IMG/VR virus record: IMGVR_UViG_3300020049_002596
Location: 1 to 64,000 of that record
DNA: 64,000 nt
From: a virus
Lineage: Duplodnaviria; Caudoviricetes
Strand: one strand, 5' to 3'
The notes under the pieces: generated by a model
Database searches by the model: none
Told to the model about the DNA's origin: nothing
Seen by the model: the letters and a program-made list of their open reading frames with translations, nothing else
Shown here: in pieces, positions 6,248 to 53,961 of the stretch
How the letters are laid out: each line of letters starts with the position of its first letter
Position numbering within the stretch: position 1 is the stretch's first letter
Position numbers and translations under genes: made by a program

Positions 6248-7400
6248 CCCAGTTGATTACCAATGGAGTTAAACCTGCTTCTTGGATTTGTCTCTCTTCA
6301 GTAAAACCATTCTCAGAATGATAAATATAAAGGTCTAACAAATCTTCAAATCCTTGTATACTATGTTGCAATGTAGCATTCTCTGCTCCTTGTGTAAATA
6401 GATTAGTATCTACAAGAGTGAGAGCTTTTCTACCAAATCTTCCCATGTTTAGGAGAGATTTGTCAACAATAAAATTTAAAGGTTTTCCTTGAAATGAAGT
6501 AGATTCTACTACAAATTGGAAAGGTTTAATTACATCAGAACCTTCAGGAACTGCAAAATGTTTATGAAGAGCAAGAGTATACCAAGCAGCTTGAATATCA
6601 TATCTTCTTGCTCTAACACTACTAGGGAAATAGAATGTATTTCCATTCATAGTCTTCAAATCTACTCCAGTAATAGATAAGATTCTTCCTTCTTCATCTC
6701 TATAAACAAACACCATATCCAACAAAGCTTTACAGTTTACTCCTCTATACTCAAAGTAAATAGGAAACTGATAAAACACTGTAGGGTCTGGCATATCTGT
6801 ATAGAAATCTCTGTCAAAGAAACTTGCTGTTCTTGGATTAGATTGTAAAGAGATGACAATCTTTTTGATGGTATCATCTTGGTTTTGACTTAATACAGTC
6901 TTACCAAAAGCTTTGCATAAATCCATAAAATATGCAGAACCTGGTTCTACAATATTCTTTAGTTTAGCATCAGCACCCCATCTAGGTTGCCATCCTGTTT
7001 TTTCACAAGCATCTAGAATGTAAGCTCCCCAATTTCCAAGCTCTCCTACAAACTCATGAAATGGGGTAACAGGTAAAGGCTCATCTTGACCTGTGATTAC
7101 TTCTAAATGCTCAGCATAGTCTTGCAATATATCTTCATGAACTAACTTTAGAATTTCTATCACAGCTTCAGAAGGTAATTTATCCACTTCTGAAATGTAA
7201 TATTCCTCTTTAAAGGCTTCTAATGAGTTAGTCAAGATACAATCTACTGCAGAACCTATTGTAAAATGTTCTGCTGAAGAGTCAAACTCTTTGTGAAAGG
7301 AACCTAAGTCCCCTAATAATAATTTTAATTTGGACTGACCTAAAGCATCAGACCCATAGTACTCTTGTACTTCTTCTTTTGTGGCTACAATTACGGACAT
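6234..7400 (-). CDS. PD-(D/E)XK exonuclease (RecE/ExoVIII-like)
   Basis: GSAVD, CKALLD...DLKT, YDIQAAWY. Confidence 0.8.
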   Translation of the reverse strand: MSVIVATKEEVQEYYGSDALGQSKLKLLLGDLGSFHKEFDSSAEHFTIGSAVDCILTNSLEAFKEEYYISEVDKLPSEAVIEILKLVHEDILQDYAEHLEVITGQDEPLPVTPFHEFVGELGNWGAYILDACEKTGWQPRWGADAKLKNIVEPGSAYFMDLCKAFGKTVLSQNQDDTIKKIVISLQSNPRTASFFDRDFYTDMPDPTVFYQFPIYFEYRGVNCKALLDMVFVYRDEEGRILSITGVDLKTMNGNTFYFPSSVRARRYDIQAAWYTLALHKHFAVPEGSDVIKPFQFVVESTSFQGKPLNFIVDKSLLNMGRFGRKALTLVDTNLFTQGAENATLQHSIQGFEDLLDLYIYHSENGFTEERQIQEAGLTPLVINWDGVI

Positions 7401-42877: not shown

Positions 42878-43678
42878 ATGTCAGTAAAAGTAGAAGTAAG
42901 ACCTATTGAGTCAAAAAGATGGCACAATAAAACAGGTCAAGAGTCTTTCACAAGACCAAAGAAAATCCAAGCTTTAGTAGATGGTAGCACAATGAAGTAT
43001 GCTACAGGCCTAACAGAAGAGGATATTAAGGTATTAGCCAAGAAAGGTGTTAACTATGATTTGTCAGCAAATTATAACTCTGAGGCACCACACCCATTTT
43101 GGGACTCAGGTATGGCAATTATTAAATTAGAGAACAATACAATGTTCTTTGATTCAGACAATGCTCTAGACTACATTAAAGTTAGAGTAATGAAAGCAAG
43201 TAAATATGTTGCTAATTCAATGGCAGAGTATGATTTAGGTATGTGGCCAGAAGCAACTCATGTTATCTTTGATGAAGCAGAACAAGCTCAAGTATTAGCT
43301 AGTAAAGTAGAAACTAAAAATACTGCTATTATTGAAGCTTCTAAATTATCACTAGATAGAAAAGTACAACTTATTCTTGTATTAGGTGGTAAGAATATGA
43401 AGAACCAATCTGCAGACTTTGTGGCTGTAGAGTTAGATAAGATCATCACTAAAGATGCAGGAGAATTCTTAAGATTCTTGAAGATGGATAAGAAACAAAC
43501 AGCAGCACATGCTCTTGTTTTAGAAGCTCTTCAAAAATCAGTATTAAGAAGAGAAGGTCAAAGAATCTTCCACATGGACTCTCCTTTAGGTATTGATGAA
43601 ATTGAAGTTGCTGAGTATCTTTCAAAAGAAGAAAATCAGGACATTAAAATGTTAATATTGTCTAAGATTAATAACTAG
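42878..43678 (+). CDS. Conserved crAss-like protein downstream of MCP
   Basis: Position and HPFW motif. Confidence 0.6.
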   Translation: MSVKVEVRPIESKRWHNKTGQESFTRPKKIQALVDGSTMKYATGLTEEDIKVLAKKGVNYDLSANYNSEAPHPFWDSGMAIIKLENNTMFFDSDNALDYIKVRVMKASKYVANSMAEYDLGMWPEATHVIFDEAEQAQVLASKVETKNTAIIEASKLSLDRKVQLILVLGGKNMKNQSADFVAVELDKIITKDAGEFLRFLKMDKKQTAAHALVLEALQKSVLRREGQRIFHMDSPLGIDEIEVAEYLSKEENQDIKMLILSKINN

Positions 43679-43683
43679 GAGTT

Positions 43684-44388
43684 ATGACAACCAGGGAAAT
43701 GCATTATGACTTCAAACAGAAGTTCAACAAAATAGATAGCCAAAAAAATAAAGGACTTTTAGTTCCTGAAATTGATTGGTTATTAAATGAAGCTGCAGAG
43801 TTATTTGTAAAAAGAGTAGCTCAGCCTAAAGCTGATAATGGCCTTGGTTTTGAAATGTCTCAAAGAATAATTGATGATATTAAATCTATTGTTGTTGGGG
43901 GTGTTTGGACTCCTGTAGGTGCAAATAACGTTATTGCTCTACCTGCTGACTACTTATATTTTGTAAGATGCAGAGTAAAATTATCAAAAAGAAATTGTAA
44001 AGGAAAAGAAGGAGTTCTTTACATTAGAGAGCACAATGATCTTTTTGAAGAGAGTGAATTCTATAGCAGCTCTTTTGAATGGAGAGAAGTAAATGGAGTT
44101 TATGAAACTCAAGGTATCCAAGCTTTTACAGATGGGACCTTTACAATTGATGAAGCAAAATTGTCTTATATACGCAAAATGGCTTATATGCACAATGCCC
44201 AAGATTTTGGTGCAGGGTCTTATAACCATCCTTCAGGTGTCACCTTAACAGGTACTGTGAATTGTGATCTCCCAGACCACACCCATAGGGAAGTTGTGGA
44301 TATAGCAGTTATGCTTGCTGCAAGTGAAGTGCAAACTTCAGACTTACAAAGTAAAATTGGTAAGTTAGGTTTTAATCAGATTGTTTAA
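43684..44388 (+). CDS. Tail ring/adaptor protein
   Basis: EIDWLLNEA, LPADYLY, CDLPDHTHREVVDIAV. Confidence 0.65.
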   Translation: MTTREMHYDFKQKFNKIDSQKNKGLLVPEIDWLLNEAAELFVKRVAQPKADNGLGFEMSQRIIDDIKSIVVGGVWTPVGANNVIALPADYLYFVRCRVKLSKRNCKGKEGVLYIREHNDLFEESEFYSSSFEWREVNGVYETQGIQAFTDGTFTIDEAKLSYIRKMAYMHNAQDFGAGSYNHPSGVTLTGTVNCDLPDHTHREVVDIAVMLAASEVQTSDLQSKIGKLGFNQIV

Positions 44389-44405
44389 TTAAAAAACTAG
44401 AAATT

Positions 44406-45626
44406 ATGAGTAATCGTAACAATGACGTTTTTCAAGTATTACCTACAAAAGGTAATCAAGCTTTGGCTGCAACAGGGTCTACTGTAGATTCTTTATTGCC
44501 AGGGCAATTAGGAGTTTTTGATGCTAGCACAGGTTTAGCTTATGCTACTGCAGTACCTGCAGGAACTAAAGCAATTACTTTAGCTGTTGGTGTTGGTAAT
44601 GGTTCTGTATTAACAGATATCAGAACTTCTGCTGGTCAATTCATCCAGACTAAAGGTATTACAGATTTAACTTTTAAACCTCATACTGCAGGTAGACCTA
44701 TGAAGGTTACTGTTGGAAGTTTTAAAGCTGAGTGTGATACTGAGTATGGAGTAAGAGTTGAATTCCGTAATGCAAAAATCAACAGAATCCAAGGATTTAA
44801 CCAATTCAGCAAAGCTTATATGGTTACAACTCCTTGTTGTGATGATTGTGCAGGAGGATGTGGTTCTTTAGATGCTAACGTATTAACTCAGTTATTCGTA
44901 GCTAATATCAATGCTGATGAGTCAGGTTTAGTTTTAGCTCAAGCTGTTGCAAGACAAGCTTTAGTTGCTGCTACTCATGGTACTGCTTCAGATTATGCTG
45001 CTGGAGATGTTCTTACTGATGCAGATGTTGCTGCTTTAGTAAACTTCAACTTGACTGCTGTAGATGCTGATAAAGTATTTGCTGACTTTCAATTAGTAAG
45101 TCAACCTTTAGCAATTGGAAACTACTGCTCTATCAACTTACATTACTACAAATTATTAGAAACAGTTTTAGTTGTTTCTTTAATTGAAGGTTTTGGATGT
45201 TCAGGAGCAACTACCATCAATCAATACCCAGTATTTGAAGAAGGTAGTGGAGTTAATATCCAACAAAAAGAGTACCATGCTTCAGGATGGGCAGGTTCAG
45301 GACCTTACAAATTGTCTCAAGTAACAGGTATGGGGTATGAAAATATCAACTATCTTTCTGTAAAAGGAACTACTTATGACCAATTTATTGTTCAGTATAA
45401 CCAAACTTCTGAATCAGGATGGCAAGAATACAGTAATGTACTAAGCACTGTAATTGCAATTCCAGAAGCTGACACAGTAACTAGACAAGCTGTTGCAACT
45501 ATCTTTAATTCTTTCTTATCTTCTTTAGGATTTGAAAGCTTAATTGATGATGCTGCTGCTGCTAGTACTAATGCTGCAGTTGTAGAGCCAGAAGTTACTT
45601 CTGCTGCTACTGATGGTATAGCATAA
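44406..45626 (+). CDS. Structural protein (auxiliary capsid-like)
   Basis: Ala/Thr-rich 406 aa; position; followed by a terminator. Confidence 0.55.
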   Translation: MSNRNNDVFQVLPTKGNQALAATGSTVDSLLPGQLGVFDASTGLAYATAVPAGTKAITLAVGVGNGSVLTDIRTSAGQFIQTKGITDLTFKPHTAGRPMKVTVGSFKAECDTEYGVRVEFRNAKINRIQGFNQFSKAYMVTTPCCDDCAGGCGSLDANVLTQLFVANINADESGLVLAQAVARQALVAATHGTASDYAAGDVLTDADVAALVNFNLTAVDADKVFADFQLVSQPLAIGNYCSINLHYYKLLETVLVVSLIEGFGCSGATTINQYPVFEEGSGVNIQQKEYHASGWAGSGPYKLSQVTGMGYENINYLSVKGTTYDQFIVQYNQTSESGWQEYSNVLSTVIAIPEADTVTRQAVATIFNSFLSSLGFESLIDDAAAASTNAAVVEPEVTSAATDGIA

Positions 45627-45652: not shown

Positions 45653-45690
45653 AAAACATCTCTATTTTTATAGAGATGTTTTTTTTATTT
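45653..45690 (+). terminator. Intrinsic terminator
   Basis: AAAACATCTCTA / TAGAGATGTTTT plus T-run. Confidence 0.75.
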
Positions 45691-45719
45691 TGTATATTTG
45701 ACACTTAAAACACTTTCCC

Positions 45720-46943
45720 ATGGCCTTGAATTACACATACTTAAAATACAAAGATACATACACACTTGAAAATACAGGTACTGTGAATCTTACTTACCAC
45801 ATAAGTAAAGTAACTTGTGAAGCAACTACAGAGATAAAAACAGCTGTAATGGTGCCTGGACAGATATCTACTTTAAGTTTTCCTGTGGATGGAAACTACT
45901 CTGTGTATTTAGAATCTAGTACTCAAGTAGGTATGCCTTTTGTCATTAAACATTATAATCATTTACTTACTTCTTTTATCAGCATGGTAGAAGGAATTGT
46001 ATGTGGATGTAGTAAATGTGATGAATGTGAAGAGTGTAATAAATGTGAAGATTATCTTGGAACACTTTTAAAAGCTCAAGCTTTTAATACTTTAAACTAT
46101 CCTGTATACCAAAACTATGTGAATCAGATTACTCAAGATTCTCTTTGTGTGTTCAGTGAGACTGTATTATGTAATTTATTACATGAAAAAGTGTATGGAA
46201 ATGCAGAAGTAAAAGATGCTATGTTGAGACTAATTAGTTTCTACTATTTAGCTTTTTATTATCAAGACAAATTCTTAGCTGTAGATGCTGAAGAAAAAGC
46301 TTATGTTACAGAGAAGTACAAGTTTGATAAGATAGCAGCATGTATGAGAAAGTTAGGTATTATACCTACTGACCCTTTATTCATGACTACTACAACTACT
46401 ACTCTTCCTATTACAACAAGTACTACCACAGTTGCCCCTAGTAGCACAACAACTACTACAGTGCCACCAAGCAGTACTACAACAACTAGTAGTAGCACAA
46501 CCACTACCACTACTGCACCTACAAGTAGTACAAGTACAACAACTACTACAACACCTCCATGTGCTTTAGCAGGATATGCAGTAGAGACTACAGGTAGTAC
46601 AACTACCTCAACTAGTAGCACAACCACTGTACCAACAACAAGTACAACTAGCACTTCTACTACAAGTACAAGTACTAGCACAACTACAACCACTGCTCCT
46701 ACTACTTCTACTAGTACAACAACAAGTACTACTAGTACTACTACAGAGCCTCCATTACCATGTCTTTCTTATACTCTAAGTGCACCTGGTGTTTCAGGTG
46801 AGTACAATGTAGCAGAATATATAGATTGTGGTGGATTACCCCAAGTTATAGAAGCTCATGGGTATGTTAATGCATCTTTTTGTGCAAGTAGCATAGTCTT
46901 TGGAGAAGGTATGGTTATTAGTACAGGAGAGTGCAACGAATAG
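45720..46943 (+). CDS. Putative virion protein with mucin-like Thr/Ser/Pro region
   Basis: ~120-aa T/S/P tract (46385-46745) between Cys-rich domains. Confidence 0.75.
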   Translation: MALNYTYLKYKDTYTLENTGTVNLTYHISKVTCEATTEIKTAVMVPGQISTLSFPVDGNYSVYLESSTQVGMPFVIKHYNHLLTSFISMVEGIVCGCSKCDECEECNKCEDYLGTLLKAQAFNTLNYPVYQNYVNQITQDSLCVFSETVLCNLLHEKVYGNAEVKDAMLRLISFYYLAFYYQDKFLAVDAEEKAYVTEKYKFDKIAACMRKLGIIPTDPLFMTTTTTTLPITTSTTTVAPSSTTTTTVPPSSTTTTSSSTTTTTTAPTSSTSTTTTTTPPCALAGYAVETTGSTTTSTSSTTTVPTTSTTSTSTTSTSTSTTTTTAPTTSTSTTTSTTSTTTEPPLPCLSYTLSAPGVSGEYNVAEYIDCGGLPQVIEAHGYVNASFCASSIVFGEGMVISTGECNE

Positions 46944-47329
46944 AAAAACTAGTAAAAGAGATTACTAGTTCTAAAAAAGATGTAGTATTTATAGGAAGTG
47001 TTTCTTTGTGGCATTTAAACTTAGTGACTAATCCTCATGATATAGATATAGTTGTCAATAATTTAGATGGCTTAGAAGTTTTTGGAAATATAGAATCTTG
47101 GGAATCAAATTCTCCTATGAGTATAAGTAAAAAAAGAGCTTGTATTAAAAGAGAAGATTACACTATAGATATTTTTATTGAAGAAACTTTACCTGAACAC
47201 AATATTGAAAACAATATTAAGTTTCAAACTCTAGATAATTTAAAAGCTCATATTGAGTTAGTAATTGAATCTTCAGAAGGAAAACTTAAAGAAATAATGA
47301 TTGAAAAAAAGAAACAGTATAAATTCTAA
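46931..47329 (+). CDS. Nucleotidyltransferase-fold protein
   Basis: IGSVSL...HDIDIVV...IDIF. Confidence 0.65.
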   Translation: MQRIEKLVKEITSSKKDVVFIGSVSLWHLNLVTNPHDIDIVVNNLDGLEVFGNIESWESNSPMSISKKRACIKREDYTIDIFIEETLPEHNIENNIKFQTLDNLKAHIELVIESSEGKLKEIMIEKKKQYKF

Positions 47330-47341
47330 AATCTACAAGAT

Positions 47342-47887
47342 ATGACAGTCTTAATAGCACTAACAACAGCAGGAACTTCAACAGGACCTTTTAATCTGTA
47401 TTCTAATACAGACAACTATGCAACTCCTTTTGAAACTAATGTACCTAAAGCAAGTTTAGTGGCAGGATATCTTAGTGTAGTGGTTCCAGCAGGAACTACC
47501 ACAGTACAAGTAAGATCTTTAGGAACTTGTACCAATAGTATTAATATTCCTATTGATTTGTTAACTACAAGCACTAGCAGTACTAGTACAACAAGTACCA
47601 CTACTACTACAGTGCCTACAACTACAACCACTACTGTAGCTCCTGCTACAAACTACAGATTTTACCGTTGTGGAGGAGATGGCATAGCTAGTGTAGTTGT
47701 AAGTGAAGCAGCTTTAATTAATGCAGGTATGGCACCAGGTGCTACTCTTACAGTTGCTAACACTATAGAAGTATCAGGTTCAGGTAATTTGACAAGCTGT
47801 TATGCTTTTGATGATATGGTATCTCTTCCTGTGACAGGGCAAGCTGTAATAAGCTTTGACCAATGTGATTGTTTAATGCCAGCATAA
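47342..47887 (+). CDS. Small protein with mucin-like Thr tract
   Basis: TTSTSSTSTTSTTTTTVPTTTTTTVAP between two small Cys-containing domains. Confidence 0.75.
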   Translation: MTVLIALTTAGTSTGPFNLYSNTDNYATPFETNVPKASLVAGYLSVVVPAGTTTVQVRSLGTCTNSINIPIDLLTTSTSSTSTTSTTTTTVPTTTTTTVAPATNYRFYRCGGDGIASVVVSEAALINAGMAPGATLTVANTIEVSGSGNLTSCYAFDDMVSLPVTGQAVISFDQCDCLMPA

Positions 47888-47888
47888 T

Positions 47889-48815
47889 ATGAGGTATATA
47901 TGTGCACAACCTGCTTCTAATTTCTACACATGGCAAGTAGAAGTGGTCATAAATAATTTTAAAAAACAGGGTGTCAATCCTAATAAAATTGACATCCTTT
48001 GTGCAATAAATGATAATGTAGTTCCTGAAGAATGGAGAAAATTACAAAATCATTACAATACAGTTAGGTTCTTTTTTTACAATGATACTAGAGCAGATAA
48101 AAGTTACATACCTTCTATCTACTTTAATCTTATGAGTAGCCACATGAAAGCTAACCCAGACTTAATAGGTCAAAGGTTATTTTTACATGATAGTGATATA
48201 ATTTTCACAAGGCCTCCAGAACTTAATTGGGCAATGTTAGGACAAGTTTGGTATCTAAGTGATACTAACTCTTACATCAATTATGATTACATACAACAAA
48301 AAGGTAATCATGTTTATGAAGATATGTGTAGCATTGTAGGTATAGATAAACTAATACCTAAATTAATGAACAGTCATTCAGGAGGTGCCCAGTATATTAC
48401 TATTGGAGAATCTTCTGAGTTTTGGGATAAAGTGGAGAGTGATAGTGTCAAACTTTATTCTTACTTTTGTAAAACAGAACATCTGTATATTAAAAAACAT
48501 GGAGGAGATTATCCAATACAAAAATGGACAGCAGGAATGTGGTCCCTTCTTTGGAATATCTGGTTAAGAGGATATGAAACAAGAGTAGACTCTAGACTTG
48601 ATTTTGGATGGAGTACTGATCATATTTCTTCAGTAGAAAAATATTGGATACTACACAATGCAGGTGTAGCTCCAACAGATTTAGGTTTATTCTTTAAAGG
48701 TAATTATACACAGGAGTTACCCTATAATAAAGAGTTAAATCTTAATGAACAAAGAGCCAGTTTCTATTATTGGAAAGAGGTGCAAGAAACAAGTAAACAA
48801 ACAATACTAATATAG
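47889..48815 (+). CDS. GT-A glycosyltransferase resembling plant peptide O-glycosyltransferases (HPAT/SGT1-like)
   Basis: YTWQVEV near the N-terminus, DSD (DxD) motif, GGAQY, KWTAGMW, late ILH. Confidence 0.7.
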   Translation: MRYICAQPASNFYTWQVEVVINNFKKQGVNPNKIDILCAINDNVVPEEWRKLQNHYNTVRFFFYNDTRADKSYIPSIYFNLMSSHMKANPDLIGQRLFLHDSDIIFTRPPELNWAMLGQVWYLSDTNSYINYDYIQQKGNHVYEDMCSIVGIDKLIPKLMNSHSGGAQYITIGESSEFWDKVESDSVKLYSYFCKTEHLYIKKHGGDYPIQKWTAGMWSLLWNIWLRGYETRVDSRLDFGWSTDHISSVEKYWILHNAGVAPTDLGLFFKGNYTQELPYNKELNLNEQRASFYYWKEVQETSKQTILI

Positions 48816-49370: not shown

Positions 49371-50762
49371 ATGATTTATTTAAGTAATCTTAATCTAAGC
49401 AAGAACCAATTACAGAATGCTGTAATTCATCCTTTAGGGACAGCACCAGCTAGTCCAGTAGAAGGGCAACTTTATTACAACTCTACTGCAGGAGTGAAAA
49501 TGCTATATGTCTATAATGGAACTGCTTGGGTACCTGTGGGAGACATAACAACTATCTCTTCTACAGAGTCTAGATTAATTGTAACTAATGGTACTACAGG
49601 AGATGTATCTTTATCTTTAGACATTGCAACAGTAGTGGCTAATGGAGGTACAGGACTTGTTACTGCAGATTTATTGTATGACTATGTAGCTGGATTAGAT
49701 GCTGTCTATTCTATCACTGCAGGTCCTGGTATATCTATTACAGGTACAAGTACAGATCCTATTATTAACAATACTGATTTAGGTTCTTCTCAAGCTATCT
49801 TTAAAAATGTGGCAGTAGCAGGACAAACTACAGTTGTTGCAGATAGTAATAATGATACTCTTACAATAGCAGCAGGAGGTAATGTAACTATTACAACTAA
49901 TGCTACTACAGATACTGTTACCATCTCTTCAACAGATACTAATACTACTTATGATTTAGTTGCTGATGTAACTGCTGGAGGAGCTGTTATTCTTTTAAAT
50001 GGTAGTGACTCATCTCAAGATGCAGTAAAAATACTTGGTACTTCTAATGAGGTAGAAGTAACTAGATCAGGAAATGATATCACAGTAGGTTTACCAAACA
50101 ATGTTGTAATTGCAGGTAACTTAACAGTTATTGGGACAACTACTACAAACAATGTAGAAACTGTATCTACATCTAATGGTGTTATTTTTGAAGGAAATGC
50201 TGCTGATGCTAATGAGTTAACTTTGATAGCAGGTACTTTAACTGCTGATCAAACTATTACTTTACCAGATGCAACAGGTACAATAGCCTTATTGACTAAC
50301 ATTGGTAATGGTACTCTTACTGTTACTGCAGGTACTTTAATGTCAGGTGGAGGTTCTTTTACAGCTAACCAAGCAGGTAACAGTTCTGTAACAATTAACC
50401 ATGCTGCTGTATCAAGAACAAATAATACTAGTTCTGCTTCTCCAGGAGTTGGAGGTAGTTTCACAGTTATTGACACTGTAACAACTTCAGCTGAAGGACA
50501 CATCACAGCAGTTAATACTAAAACAGTTACTTTACCAGCTAATAGTGCTACTTCTTATGCTACTACAATTTCTGTATCAGGAACTATCACACATAGTTTA
50601 AGTACAAAAGATGTCATAGTACAATTATATGACACAGTAACAAATGAAACAGTTTATGCTGATGTAGTGAGAGTAAATACAGCTCCTTACAATACAGTAA
50701 CAGTTACTTTTGGAAATGCACCAGCAAATCCAATTAGAGTTTTAGTTTCTAAAATAGGATAA
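49371..50762 (+). CDS. Tail fibre/structural protein
   Basis: T/G/A/N-rich beta repeats, EGQLYYNST, C-terminal HSLSTKDV domain. Confidence 0.7.
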   Translation: MIYLSNLNLSKNQLQNAVIHPLGTAPASPVEGQLYYNSTAGVKMLYVYNGTAWVPVGDITTISSTESRLIVTNGTTGDVSLSLDIATVVANGGTGLVTADLLYDYVAGLDAVYSITAGPGISITGTSTDPIINNTDLGSSQAIFKNVAVAGQTTVVADSNNDTLTIAAGGNVTITTNATTDTVTISSTDTNTTYDLVADVTAGGAVILLNGSDSSQDAVKILGTSNEVEVTRSGNDITVGLPNNVVIAGNLTVIGTTTTNNVETVSTSNGVIFEGNAADANELTLIAGTLTADQTITLPDATGTIALLTNIGNGTLTVTAGTLMSGGGSFTANQAGNSSVTINHAAVSRTNNTSSASPGVGGSFTVIDTVTTSAEGHITAVNTKTVTLPANSATSYATTISVSGTITHSLSTKDVIVQLYDTVTNETVYADVVRVNTAPYNTVTVTFGNAPANPIRVLVSKIG

Positions 50763-50787: not shown

Positions 50788-53700
50788 ATGTCTCAAAAAT
50801 TTAAAAGTGAAGTAGAACTTCAAGCTTTAAATGCTGCTACCACAGATACTGATAAATTCTTAGTATCTGATGGTGGCATCATTAAGTTTAGAACAGGGGC
50901 TGAGATGTTATCTGACTTAGGTGTGGCACCTGGAGTAGCCTCTAATATTCAACATCAAGTAAAAGCAGGAGTAGCAATAAATAAAGGACAAGCAGTATAT
51001 GTATCTTCAGCAGATGGTACTAATATGATTGTGTCTTTGGCATCTAATGCTGCAGAAGCAACCTCATCAAAAACAATGGGGTTATTGGCATCTACTGTTG
51101 CTATAAATGGTTTTGCTAATGTTATAGTTGAAGGTTTACTTGCAGGACTAAACACATCTACTGCTACAGCAGGAGACCCTGTTTGGTTAGGTACTGGAGG
51201 TAATCTTATTTATGGTTTAGTAAACAAACCTTATGCACCAGCTCACTTAGTTTTTATTGGTATTGTTACCAGAGTTAATGCCAACAATGGAGAAATCTTT
51301 GTAAAAGTTCAGAATGGATTTGAACTTGATGAATTACATGATGTAGACTTAAAAAGTCTAACTCCTGTTAGTGGACATATCTTAGGGTTTAATGGGAACC
51401 TGTGGGTTAATAAAACTATTGCAGCTTGGTTAGGATATACACCACAAGTTCAACTTAATGGGACTGGATTTGTAAAAGCATCTGGAACTACAATTACTTA
51501 TGATAATACATCTTATTATCCATCTTCAAACCCTAATGGGTATATATCTTCTTATTCAGAGACAGATACTTTACAAAGTGTAGTCAATAGAGGAGCAAGT
51601 AGCTCAACACAAATAACTTTGTCAGGAGCTGGAAATAATTCTACAACCTATTCTTCTTTAAGATTTGCAGGATACAACCAAGGAGGAGGAGTTGGATACC
51701 ATGGTTTCTTTGAGATTCAAAACACTTATGGTTCTGTAACTAATGGTAAAAAGTTTTTTAGAATAGATGGAAGTGGTACTTTACAAATTATCAACAGTGC
51801 TTATACAAATAACATCTTTAATCTTACTGATGCTGGAGATTTAACAACAACTAAGTTTATAAAATCAGGAGGAACTGCTGCTCAAATATTAGCTGCAGAT
51901 GGTTCTGTAATTACAGCAGGTTCAAATATTACTATAAGTGGAGGAGTAATATCTTCTACAGGAGGTGCAGCTTATACTCATCCTGCTTACACAGCAAGAA
52001 ATATAGATACATCAGGAGCACAAGTAATTGATATAATTACATCAGATGCCATAGGTAGTATAACAAATATTACAACAAGGAATTTAACTCCAGGTGACAT
52101 AGGTGCTCAACCAGCAGGAAGTTATTTGACTTCTGAAACAGATACATTACAAAGTGTAACTAATAGGGGGGCTACGACTAATTTAGCCATAACTTCTCCT
52201 AACTATGTATTTACTGGAGCTAGTAGTGGTGCGGTTGGATTGGTAACATCGACAAGTTCTTTTGGAACACGAAGCTCAGATGGTACAACATACGGATATG
52301 GTATTAGTACAAATATAAATGGAGGATTAGATATAATGGCTAATCAGTCAGGCCAGCCTATAAGATTTTGGGCAGGTACAACAAATGTTAGCCCTATACA
52401 ACGTATGATTATATCTGCTGGTGATGTTACAGCAACAGATTCATTTAGATCTCCTATATTCTATGATTCAAATAATACTGGTTACTATGTAGACCCTAAT
52501 AATACAAGTAATTTAAATATAGTTAGAGCTGCAAATAGACTAACTGGGGCTTGGATTGGTGTAGATAATACAAGTGCAACTAGTGGTAATGGTATTTCAT
52601 TATATAATGGCTCTGCTGCTGGTCAACCTACTTATGGGATAATGTTTGCAGGGACTGCTACTTTTGGAACTCATGGTTCTGTAACCTCAGATTGGGCTAC
52701 TTATTTAACTATGAGTGACACTACAACTAGAGGTTGGATATTTAAAAGAGGTACAACTAATGTTGCTTCTATTTCAGGTACAGGAATACTTACAGTAAAT
52801 GGAGATGTAAGAGCTCCAATTTTTTATGACTCAAATAACACAGGTTATTATTGTGACCCTACTAGTACTTCTAACTTAGTTGGATTAACAGTAGCTAATA
52901 CTATTTCAGGTAACATAACAGGTAACTCAGGCACTGTATCAAGTATAACTGGCAATACAGGATTGATGGTAAATTCTTTAGCGGCTCCTGCACTAATTGA
53001 TGGTTTAACTACTGCTAATTTTAGAAGTACTTTATTTGGGACTACGTCTAATGGTTACCAAATATCAACTGCTAGATGGAATAATGTACCAGCACCTTTA
53101 GGAGGTCTAGGGGCTTATGGTACTATGCTTTCTTGGTCAGGTAGTGATACACATGGTTTTATAGCTATGGACTATTCTGCAGCTGCCCTTAGAGTTGGAG
53201 GAGGAAATGCAAACAATATTAACTGGACTAGACAAGTAATTATAGAAGATGCTTGGGTAAATAGTAAGTATCTTGCATCAGATGGAAGAATTTACGGCAC
53301 TATATTTTATGATGCAAATGATTCTACATATTGGGTAGATCCTGCTGGTTCAACAACTTCTGCAAATTTTCTTTCTAAGATAACTATACAAGGAGGTTCT
53401 AATAGTGCAACAACTATGATGCAAGTTGTCAATAATTATGGAAATCCTTCTTTAAGTTCTTATTATGGTATTTTACATAGCTCTAGTGCTTTTTATGCTG
53501 GAAACCCTACAGGTACAGCTTATGCTGTATATGGTTCTGATGCTCAGTTTTATACTTACTATGATAGAAATAATACTGCTTATTACTTTGATGGTAGTAA
53601 CACAGGAGATTCTATTAGAGTTGCAGGAGACATTGTAGCTTACTATTCTGATGATAGATTAAAAGATAGAAAAGGAAACATTGAAAATGCATTAGAAAAA

Positions 53701-53961
53701 GTTTTATCTTTGAATGGTTTTTACTATGAGGCAAATCAAAAAGCTCAAGAGTTAGGCTACAAAAAGAAAATGGAAGTAGGGGTATCTGCTCAAGAAGTAG
53801 AAGCTATTCTTCCTGAGTTAATTAAGGATGCTCCAATAGGACAGGGGTATAAAACTCTTGACTATGGTAGATTAACTCCTTTGTTGATTGAAGCTATTAA
53901 AGACCAACAAAAACAAATTGAAGAATTAAAAGAATTAGTAAATAAATTAACCACTAAATAA
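50788..53961 (+). CDS. Tail fibre with C-terminal peptidase S74 autocleaving chaperone
   Basis: YSDDRLK...GVSAQEV...LIEAIKDQQKQIEELK; internal repeats. Confidence 0.88.
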   Translation: MSQKFKSEVELQALNAATTDTDKFLVSDGGIIKFRTGAEMLSDLGVAPGVASNIQHQVKAGVAINKGQAVYVSSADGTNMIVSLASNAAEATSSKTMGLLASTVAINGFANVIVEGLLAGLNTSTATAGDPVWLGTGGNLIYGLVNKPYAPAHLVFIGIVTRVNANNGEIFVKVQNGFELDELHDVDLKSLTPVSGHILGFNGNLWVNKTIAAWLGYTPQVQLNGTGFVKASGTTITYDNTSYYPSSNPNGYISSYSETDTLQSVVNRGASSSTQITLSGAGNNSTTYSSLRFAGYNQGGGVGYHGFFEIQNTYGSVTNGKKFFRIDGSGTLQIINSAYTNNIFNLTDAGDLTTTKFIKSGGTAAQILAADGSVITAGSNITISGGVISSTGGAAYTHPAYTARNIDTSGAQVIDIITSDAIGSITNITTRNLTPGDIGAQPAGSYLTSETDTLQSVTNRGATTNLAITSPNYVFTGASSGAVGLVTSTSSFGTRSSDGTTYGYGISTNINGGLDIMANQSGQPIRFWAGTTNVSPIQRMIISAGDVTATDSFRSPIFYDSNNTGYYVDPNNTSNLNIVRAANRLTGAWIGVDNTSATSGNGISLYNGSAAGQPTYGIMFAGTATFGTHGSVTSDWATYLTMSDTTTRGWIFKRGTTNVASISGTGILTVNGDVRAPIFYDSNNTGYYCDPTSTSNLVGLTVANTISGNITGNSGTVSSITGNTGLMVNSLAAPALIDGLTTANFRSTLFGTTSNGYQISTARWNNVPAPLGGLGAYGTMLSWSGSDTHGFIAMDYSAAALRVGGGNANNINWTRQVIIEDAWVNSKYLASDGRIYGTIFYDANDSTYWVDPAGSTTSANFLSKITIQGGSNSATTMMQVVNNYGNPSLSSYYGILHSSSAFYAGNPTGTAYAVYGSDAQFYTYYDRNNTAYYFDGSNTGDSIRVAGDIVAYYSDDRLKDRKGNIENALEKVLSLNGFYYEANQKAQELGYKKKMEVGVSAQEVEAILPELIKDAPIGQGYKTLDYGRLTPLLIEAIKDQQKQIEELKELVNKLTTK

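Follow-up and report, generated by a model that had tools for sequence, protein, structure and literature searches.

Why does a predicted glycosyltransferase gene of a bacteriophage sit directly behind a gene whose product carries a long threonine-rich tract? The question is raised by IMG/VR virus record IMGVR_UViG_3300020049_002596, a 95.5-kb genome rated complete by CheckV, of which the first 64 kb (the window) were analysed here. Two genes of the window encode proteins of 407 and 181 amino acids with threonine-rich tracts, and the second is followed by the gene for a 308-amino-acid member of phrog_4417, a phage protein family whose function is not known. Comparison across phages and bacteria reveals that this enzyme and poly-threonine tracts are tightly linked, and that they are present or absent together in two unrelated phage lineages. 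We consider it probable that the locus specifies a protein threonine O-glycosyltransferase with genetically coupled acceptor tracts, the enzyme glycosylating those tracts; we are somewhat less confident that it initiates directly on threonine, and any particular sugar or biological role must be regarded as far less secure.

To our knowledge, a few mycobacteriophages are the only phages for which self-glycosylation of the particle has been demonstrated. In these, virion glycosylation alters antibody recognition. Phage-encoded glycosyltransferases are reported to glycosylate the virion proteins of mycobacteriophages Che8, Corndog and Myrna (Freeman et al. 2023, as described in PMC12363180 and PMC12582341), and the Che8 products gp108–110 are described as GT2/GT25 enzymes with a methyltransferase (PMC12363180). 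Full-text literature searches, whose coverage mostly excludes subscription journals, returned no paper on phrog_4417 or on poly-threonine glycosylation in the phages considered here.

Threonine-rich carriers in a crAss-like phage

The original prediction, made from the window alone, described two genes with long Thr/Ser/Pro tracts between Cys-rich domains and a DxD glycosyltransferase gene beginning 1 nucleotide after the second of them. All three open reading frames (ORFs) lie where they were placed, and the junction of the 181-residue carrier gene with the enzyme gene reads TAA-T-ATG, a 1-nucleotide gap at which the start is coupled. The tract of the 407-residue carrier comprises 68 Thr, 25 Ser and 11 Pro among 124 residues, and that of the 181-residue carrier 18 Thr and 5 Ser among 31 (Table 1). 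These are the sole poly-Thr or Ser/Thr-rich ORFs in the 95.5-kb genome, and the tracts exceed chance expectation. An origin as a DNA microsatellite was rejected on the basis of the mixed Thr codons (ACT 32, ACA 30 and ACC 6, in proportions like those of the rest of the genome) and of Tandem Repeats Finder matches of just 59–79%.

In the predicted structure of the 407-residue carrier, a β-sandwich (residues 1–78) and a helical domain (80–211) precede a disordered segment (225–343) and a small, poorly predicted end domain; the first two are conserved across crAss-like relatives. Its cysteines fall before the tract (95, 97, 100, 103, 106 and 109), within it (281) and after it (348, 370, 388 and 405), and those of the 181-residue carrier at position 63 before the tract and at 110, 153, 175 and 177 after it. 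The six-Cys cluster CGCSKCDECEECNKC (46002–46046, residues 95–109 of the 407-residue carrier) shows little or no variation among 43 orthologues and may be a metal-binding site in a helical domain that has no structural match. In many carriers (loci L021, L030, L036, L063, L073 and L080; 46758–46940 in the window), modules of about 50–65 residues with three or four Cys alternate with poly-Thr tracts, and the protein ends in such a module. The end modules have a Cys pattern of roughly C..Y...Y..C.G...CA...G.C, a likeness judged by eye; iterated HMMER searches from the window's copy of the end domain and from the clear copy in L036 failed to link the copies, and a shared terminal Cys domain is not claimed.

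The suggestion that both carriers are virion proteins has found no backing beyond the position of their genes. Translated searches (tblastn) with both N-terminal domains against 50,697 phage records gave no match in isolate phages, and a fold search with the 407-residue carrier returned generic β-sandwich matches only (E 5e-3 or worse), none of them to crAss001 or any other solved virion protein. The 181-residue carrier shares its N-terminal domain with proteins encoded upstream of the enzyme at some 11 further viral loci.

The enzyme follows poly-threonine genes across phages and bacteria

Linkage was assessed in a viral set of 80 IMG/VR loci, four isolate records and the window, with counts taken over 84 loci; a gene was scored as poly-Thr if its product held at least 6 Thr in an 8-residue window, and genes at least two positions from the enzyme served for comparison. 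A poly-Thr gene lies immediately upstream of the enzyme gene (position −1) at 64 of the 84 loci, as against 62 of 785 other genes (nominal Fisher p = 1e-43), and immediately downstream (+1) at none (0/82; a count of 0/78 is also given for this position). Among 76 bacterial species genomes, the corresponding figures are 37/76 and 43/650 (nominal p = 2e-19). The co-occurrence of glycosyltransferase and threonine-rich genes for which the original prediction asked is thus tight and repeated, and the lack of linkage that would have told against that prediction is clearly not what the loci show. Under a stricter criterion (10 Ser/Thr in 12 residues), many failing loci still have 6–9 Thr at the C terminus of a tail-tube-sized protein. 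The phage backbone of the window is common to just 2 of the 84 viral loci, and with their tracts masked the adjacent carriers resolve into 12 sequence clusters.

Isolate phages have the same arrangement. In four of them, from different genera, a gene whose product contains or ends in a poly-Thr tract directly precedes that of the homologue: Enterococcus phage phiFL1A, where it encodes the major tail protein, Lactococcus phage 1706, where it is annotated ‘major structural protein’, Lactobacillus phage PLE3 and Chryseobacterium phage MA9V-3; the adjacency is found again in the Lactobacillus plantarum myovirus Iacchus, Staphylococcus phage PMBT8 and Clostridium phage phiCTP1. In the bacterial genomes, poly-Thr genes peak a second time at a distance of five or six genes upstream; the gene at that distance in phiFL1A occupies the capsid position.

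Two observations concern individual loci. In Firmicutes prophages (L002:960–1955; GTDB loci L094–L155), the protein encoded five or six genes upstream also ends in poly-Thr (30 of the 102 genes there), and both capsid and tail tube may be tagged in these prophages. In Enterococcus phage Planchet (L199:4773–5000), a 229-nucleotide unannotated gap separates the major capsid gene from the enzyme gene; its capsid protein has no Thr tail and its tail-tube protein ends Thr-rich.

Tract and enzyme vary together in two lineages

Residues 1–220 of the 407-residue carrier define a conserved crAss-like protein 229–664 residues long. We compared syntenic regions from nine places, seven without the enzyme and two with it. 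The seven enzyme-less loci contain a single Thr-rich match, an 8-residue stretch in a portal protein, and their orthologues of the 407-residue carrier, 229–335 residues in length, have no poly-Thr tract; at the two enzyme-bearing loci, two or three poly-Thr ORFs lie directly upstream of the enzyme.

The second lineage, unrelated to the crAss-like phages, is that of the Enterococcus siphovirus tail tube, represented by 20 proteins orthologous to the major tail protein of phiFL1A. Each of the nine that are followed by the enzyme carries a poly-Thr tail, and none of the eleven without the enzyme has one, all of these stopping a few residues past the conserved ...PGETTG(D/N)(Y/F) motif. Tract and enzyme are therefore present or absent together in both lineages.

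Beside these comparisons, a methyltransferase-like gene follows the enzyme directly in a close relative (L171:13563–14159, one of the two enzyme-bearing crAss-like loci), and in another family member (P0006, 481 residues) a methyltransferase is fused to the enzyme, recalling the GT2–methyltransferase fusion of Che8 gp108. A methyltransferase next to or fused to the enzyme hints at methylated sugars.

A predicted GT-A fold with a conserved active site

The 308-residue protein matches phrog_4417 with E 2.3e-68 over residues 1–301 (profile positions 1–291 of 293) and is thus a full-length member. The family is large, with 1,824 clusters at 90% identity (E up to 1e-5) and 810 representatives at 50% identity, and extends over phages of Firmicutes, Bacteroidota and others as well as 128 bacterial species genomes. 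Searches of Pfam, NCBIfam and PDB sequences gave no match for the enzyme.

An AlphaFold2 model built from a 63-sequence family alignment reaching down to 31% identity (predicted local distance difference test score, 96.3) consists of one Rossmann-like α/β/α domain that matches solved GT-A enzymes along the greater part of the chain, with a conserved DxD motif after the fourth β-strand; by its predicted fold, the protein is a DxD GT-A glycosyltransferase. The motifs that had been noticed at the outset, YTWQ (13–16), DSD (101–103) and WTAGMW (213–218), are present and conserved in the family. In all 63 sequences, W15, Y73, D103, Y129, Y134, G166, M217, F239, H256 and K270 are invariant, and near-invariance extends to D101 (at least 90%), to Q168 and to several Trp. 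In order and spacing, the DxD, Gln, His and Lys appear to resemble the catalytic set of GT8 enzymes.

No Pfam Glyco_transf_8 match was found for the enzyme or any of the 63 relatives at E up to 1, and profile comparison (hhalign) with the Escherichia coli GT8 enzymes WaaJ/WaaO, which places D101-S-D103 on their DAD, gave a non-significant probability of 9.9%; sequence similarity does not place the enzyme in CAZy GT8. More generally, it has no significant sequence similarity to the retaining GT-A enzymes of GT8, GT24 and GT77 (glycogenin, LgtC, UGGT, AgtA and GlyE), from which it also differs in a helical insert of about 50 residues (176–226) and in its proposed acceptor.

On the strength of its YxWQ, DxD and WxxxM(W/Y) motifs, the enzyme had been likened to the plant hydroxyproline O-arabinosyltransferases (HPATs) and peptidyl-serine galactosyltransferases of GT95/GT96. 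HPATs are described as GT8-like, which would suit the fold predicted for the phage enzyme. The HPAT model (PF23452) found no match in the enzyme or the phage genome at E up to 10, and none above the family cut-off (23.9 bits) in five Bacteroidota genomes carrying homologues. Weak matches occur in 2 of the 63 relatives (best E 1.3e-4), and one Atlas cluster of the family has 10% of its members labelled HPAT. Membership of GT95/GT96 is not demonstrated by these weak matches, and a remote relationship is possible. What the plant and algal enzymes share with the activity proposed here is direct action on hydroxyls of repetitive, extended peptides; they differ in their acceptor, hydroxyproline or Ser as against Thr, and the phage enzyme would be cytoplasmic, without a membrane anchor.

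Longer members of the family fuse the enzyme domain, usually N-terminal, to GT6, GT2, GT32-type, GT25, methyltransferase or radical SAM/SPASM domains. On Chitinophaga (L097:2577–10101) and Hanamia (L149:2408–8812) chromosomes, a two-domain form of about 580 residues, its second domain of Glyco_transf_7C type, sits among genes for radical SAM proteins, LanC-like proteins, a C39-peptidase ABC exporter and HlyD; these are candidate glycosylated peptide natural-product clusters. Fusions and peptide-cluster contexts alike agree with an enzyme that initiates glycans on peptides.

What the enzyme acts on

An enzyme of this fold could instead elongate a glycan, a host enzyme adding the first sugar to Thr and the phage enzyme the second, much as GlyE acts on serine-rich repeat adhesins and AgtA on Skp1. 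The closest structural neighbours of the model, AgtA, GlyE, LgtC and UGGT, all take glycan acceptors and lend this possibility some weight. We nevertheless judge it unlikely: this phage encodes no other glycosyltransferase, hosts as different as Firmicutes, Bacteroidota and others are unlikely all to provide a cytoplasmic enzyme that initiates on Thr, and in most of the fusions scanned the enzyme domain comes first, with further transferase domains after it.

The enzyme might alternatively modify DNA bases or host surface glycans and merely share a mobile accessory cassette with Thr-rich fibre genes. Phage glycosyltransferases for DNA and O-antigen modification are common, and the cassette is clearly accessory and mobile. 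In phages of Firmicutes, however, no mobile fibre gene is involved: the tract is a short tail on an otherwise conserved tail-tube protein, yet it co-varies exactly with the enzyme. The enzyme gene, moreover, belongs to late structural operons, where it is start-coupled to the carrier gene and in every case follows it, and its product has neither membrane segments nor Gtr-type partners. By gene context, the enzyme does not group with DNA- or lipopolysaccharide-modifying enzymes, a grouping that the original prediction had named as fatal to it, and we hold a target other than the tracts to be very improbable. Least of all do we credit that the tracts are unmodified flexible linkers beside a glycosyltransferase-like protein that is inactive, structural or non-transferase: poly-Thr/Pro linkers without known modification do occur in many phage fibres and the tract is predicted to be disordered, but the DxD, His, Lys and Gln positions vary little or not at all across the family alignment, as befits a conserved active site, and exact co-variation of tract and enzyme would be unexpected.

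Glycosylation of the tracts by the phrog_4417 enzyme itself therefore remains the reading we prefer, with several points weighing against it. Most of the near structural neighbours named above add sugars to existing glycans, and only glycogenin modifies a protein side chain. Both carriers are assigned to the virion from the position of their genes in the structural module. The loci compared are not fully independent, such that the p-values overstate significance, and about a quarter of the viral loci and half of the genome loci fail the −1 poly-Thr criterion, several of these having shorter tails or being non-phage clusters. That the enzyme is a peptide O-glycosyltransferase coupled to threonine-rich proteins is nonetheless well supported by comparative genomics and predicted fold, and this part of the original prediction stands more firmly than GT95/GT96 membership, a virion location of the carriers or the roles that it named (shielding, rigid spacers, adhesion, or bait for glycan-binding proteins of the host).

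A proposed mechanism

We propose that carriers and enzyme would be expressed from one transcript during late infection. The enzyme, cytoplasmic and metal-dependent, would bind a host uridine diphosphate (UDP)-sugar and the metal through D101, D103 and H256, and would transfer the sugar, with retention of anomeric configuration, directly onto the hydroxyls of Thr (and Ser) along the disordered tracts of the two carriers. In the 95.5-kb phage genome, searches found no further GT2/GT4 enzyme and neither an epimerase nor a sugar nucleotidyltransferase, so that the donor must be host-derived and the glycan is probably short; with a single enzyme, one sugar or a short chain per site would be expected. 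In other phages, the fused glycosyltransferases and methyltransferases would extend the glycan, and the partners of the enzyme there are tail-tube and capsid proteins that end in a short poly-Thr stretch.

In mucins and in glycosylated cellulase linkers, dense sugars stiffen and protect the peptide. By analogy, the glycosylated tracts could form mucin-like, extended, protease-resistant stalks bearing small Cys-containing end domains, the sugars stiffening and protecting the tract and holding the end domain at a distance from the particle. Enzyme and acceptor tract would constitute one genetic unit, gained and lost jointly.

Comparison with known glycosylation systems

The mycobacteriophage systems offer the nearest likeness, in that a phage-encoded enzyme is paired with the phage's own structural proteins and methyltransferase partners occur in both. 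In relatives of the cassette, as in Che8, tail-tube and capsid proteins are concerned, here with Thr-rich C-terminal tails. As far as genes alone can tell, linkage and co-variation give the arrangement that defines phage virion self-glycosylation, a glycosyltransferase encoded by the phage together with structural proteins that bear Ser/Thr-rich acceptor segments, here with a different enzyme family. The mycobacteriophage enzymes are unrelated in sequence to phrog_4417 (hhalign of the family profile with Che8 gp108 and gp110, probability below 1%), and their genes lie at the genome end, whereas here the enzyme gene adjoins that of the acceptor. In the window, the carriers are accessory proteins, with a tract of more than 100 residues in the 407-residue one, and not capsid or tail tube; the hosts, too, are Bacteroidota and Firmicutes, unlike those of the mycobacteriophages. 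Animal mucin-type O-glycosylation takes place in the secretory pathway and giant-virus glycosylation (for example, PBCV-1 A64R) in eukaryotic virus factories; other enzyme families are at work there, and nothing points to a common ancestry of the animal mucin or giant-virus tracts and those of phages.

Phage and gene neighbourhood

The source is a crAss-like phage with a host of the Flavobacterium type. Profile searches identify a Crass-type major capsid protein (Crass_capsid, E 1e-161), ring protein 1 (CrAss_Ring_1, E 5e-57) and a muzzle protein (crAss_MUZ, E 5e-28), the combination typical of Crassvirales, and the large terminase and portal genes lie upstream in the window. The closest DNA relatives are Flavobacterium psychrophilum phages, at merely 67% identity across 500 bp, and the GC content is 33%. 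Among crAss-like relatives without the cassette, one (L169) has an Acb2/Tad1-hairpin gene, resembling anti-CBASS/Thoeris sponges, after the capsid gene (7007–7219), and a tail-region protein with an ice-binding domain (L169:17877–19001).

Carrier and enzyme genes belong to a late structural block on the + strand, flanked on one side by a capsid-proximal gene set (42878–45626) and on the other by tail-fibre-like genes (49371–50762 and 50788–53961, the latter with an S74 chaperone domain). The terminator that had been noted ahead of the carrier genes is present (Table 1). TAnnTTTG is the Bacteroidota −7 promoter consensus. The promoter claimed for the block, TATATTTG, is there as well, but as a mark of a dedicated promoter it is not specific, because TAnnTTTG is found 79 times on the + strand of the whole 95.5-kb genome. 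No terminator was found 3′ of the enzyme gene and the next gene begins 14 nucleotides on; the block therefore continues into the tail-fibre genes, and a self-contained operon was rejected.

The original prediction named the three carrier and enzyme ORFs correctly and overlooked a fourth, of 132 residues, between the two carrier genes. Its GS...DIDIV motif is typical of small Pol-beta-type nucleotidyltransferases, with a weak Pox_polyA_pol match (E 0.027), and a protein-atlas search groups it among viral hypothetical proteins of 130–144 residues. It seems to have been inserted into the cassette, as a homologue occurs in only 1 of 84 related loci; not being conserved in the cassette elsewhere, it probably lies outside the glycosylation function.

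Table 1 Coordinates of the threonine-rich cassette and its upstream signals in the window
Feature	Position	Strand	Basis or remark
Intrinsic-terminator-like hairpin, 13-bp stem, 4-nucleotide loop, then T-run	45653..45682	+	Closes upstream gene 44406–45626
TATATTTG, fits the Bacteroidota −7 promoter consensus	45693..45700	+	Plausible, non-specific
407-residue carrier: N-terminal β-sandwich, helical domain, Thr/Ser/Pro tract, 4-Cys C-terminal domain	45720..46943	+	phrog_15330; ORF, relatives, model
Poly-Thr/Ser/Pro tract of the 407-residue carrier, residues 222–345, predicted disordered; proposed acceptor	46383..46754	+	
132-residue ORF, GTG start, 13-nucleotide overlap with the previous gene's stop, nucleotidyltransferase-like GS...DxD	46931..47329	+	
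181-residue carrier: N-terminal domain of about 70 residues, poly-Thr tract, Cys-containing C-terminal domain	47342..47887	+	ORF
Poly-Thr tract of the 181-residue carrier, residues 74–104; proposed acceptor	47561..47653	+	
308-residue GT-A glycosyltransferase (phrog_4417), predicted retaining-type GT8/GT24/GT77-like fold	47889..48815	+	Profile match, model
Codons for D101-S102-D103, DxD metal/nucleotide-sugar motif	48189..48197	+	63-member alignment

Implications

Beyond this phage, we lean towards the view that the large and uncharacterised phrog_4417 family consists of polypeptide Thr O-glycosyltransferases, in which a portable poly-Thr tag and an enzyme encoded immediately downstream would furnish capsids, tail tubes and fibres with mucin-like stalks or a coat of glycans, crAss-like phages included, and whose domain bacteria may have recruited into peptide natural-product clusters. 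Several isolate phages and prophages carrying the pair are in culture. If the proposal is right, the poly-Thr tag and one soluble enzyme would provide a two-part tool for cytoplasmic O-glycosylation of recombinant proteins, and an unannotated phage family would gain a function. Glycan-decorated virions would then be common where the host is a lactic acid bacterium, an enterococcus, a staphylococcus, a clostridium or a member of the Bacteroidota, the crAss-like phages among them, with a bearing on phage therapy (immunogenicity and clearance), on how phages adhere to mucus or to the matrix of biofilms and on the biology of dairy phages.

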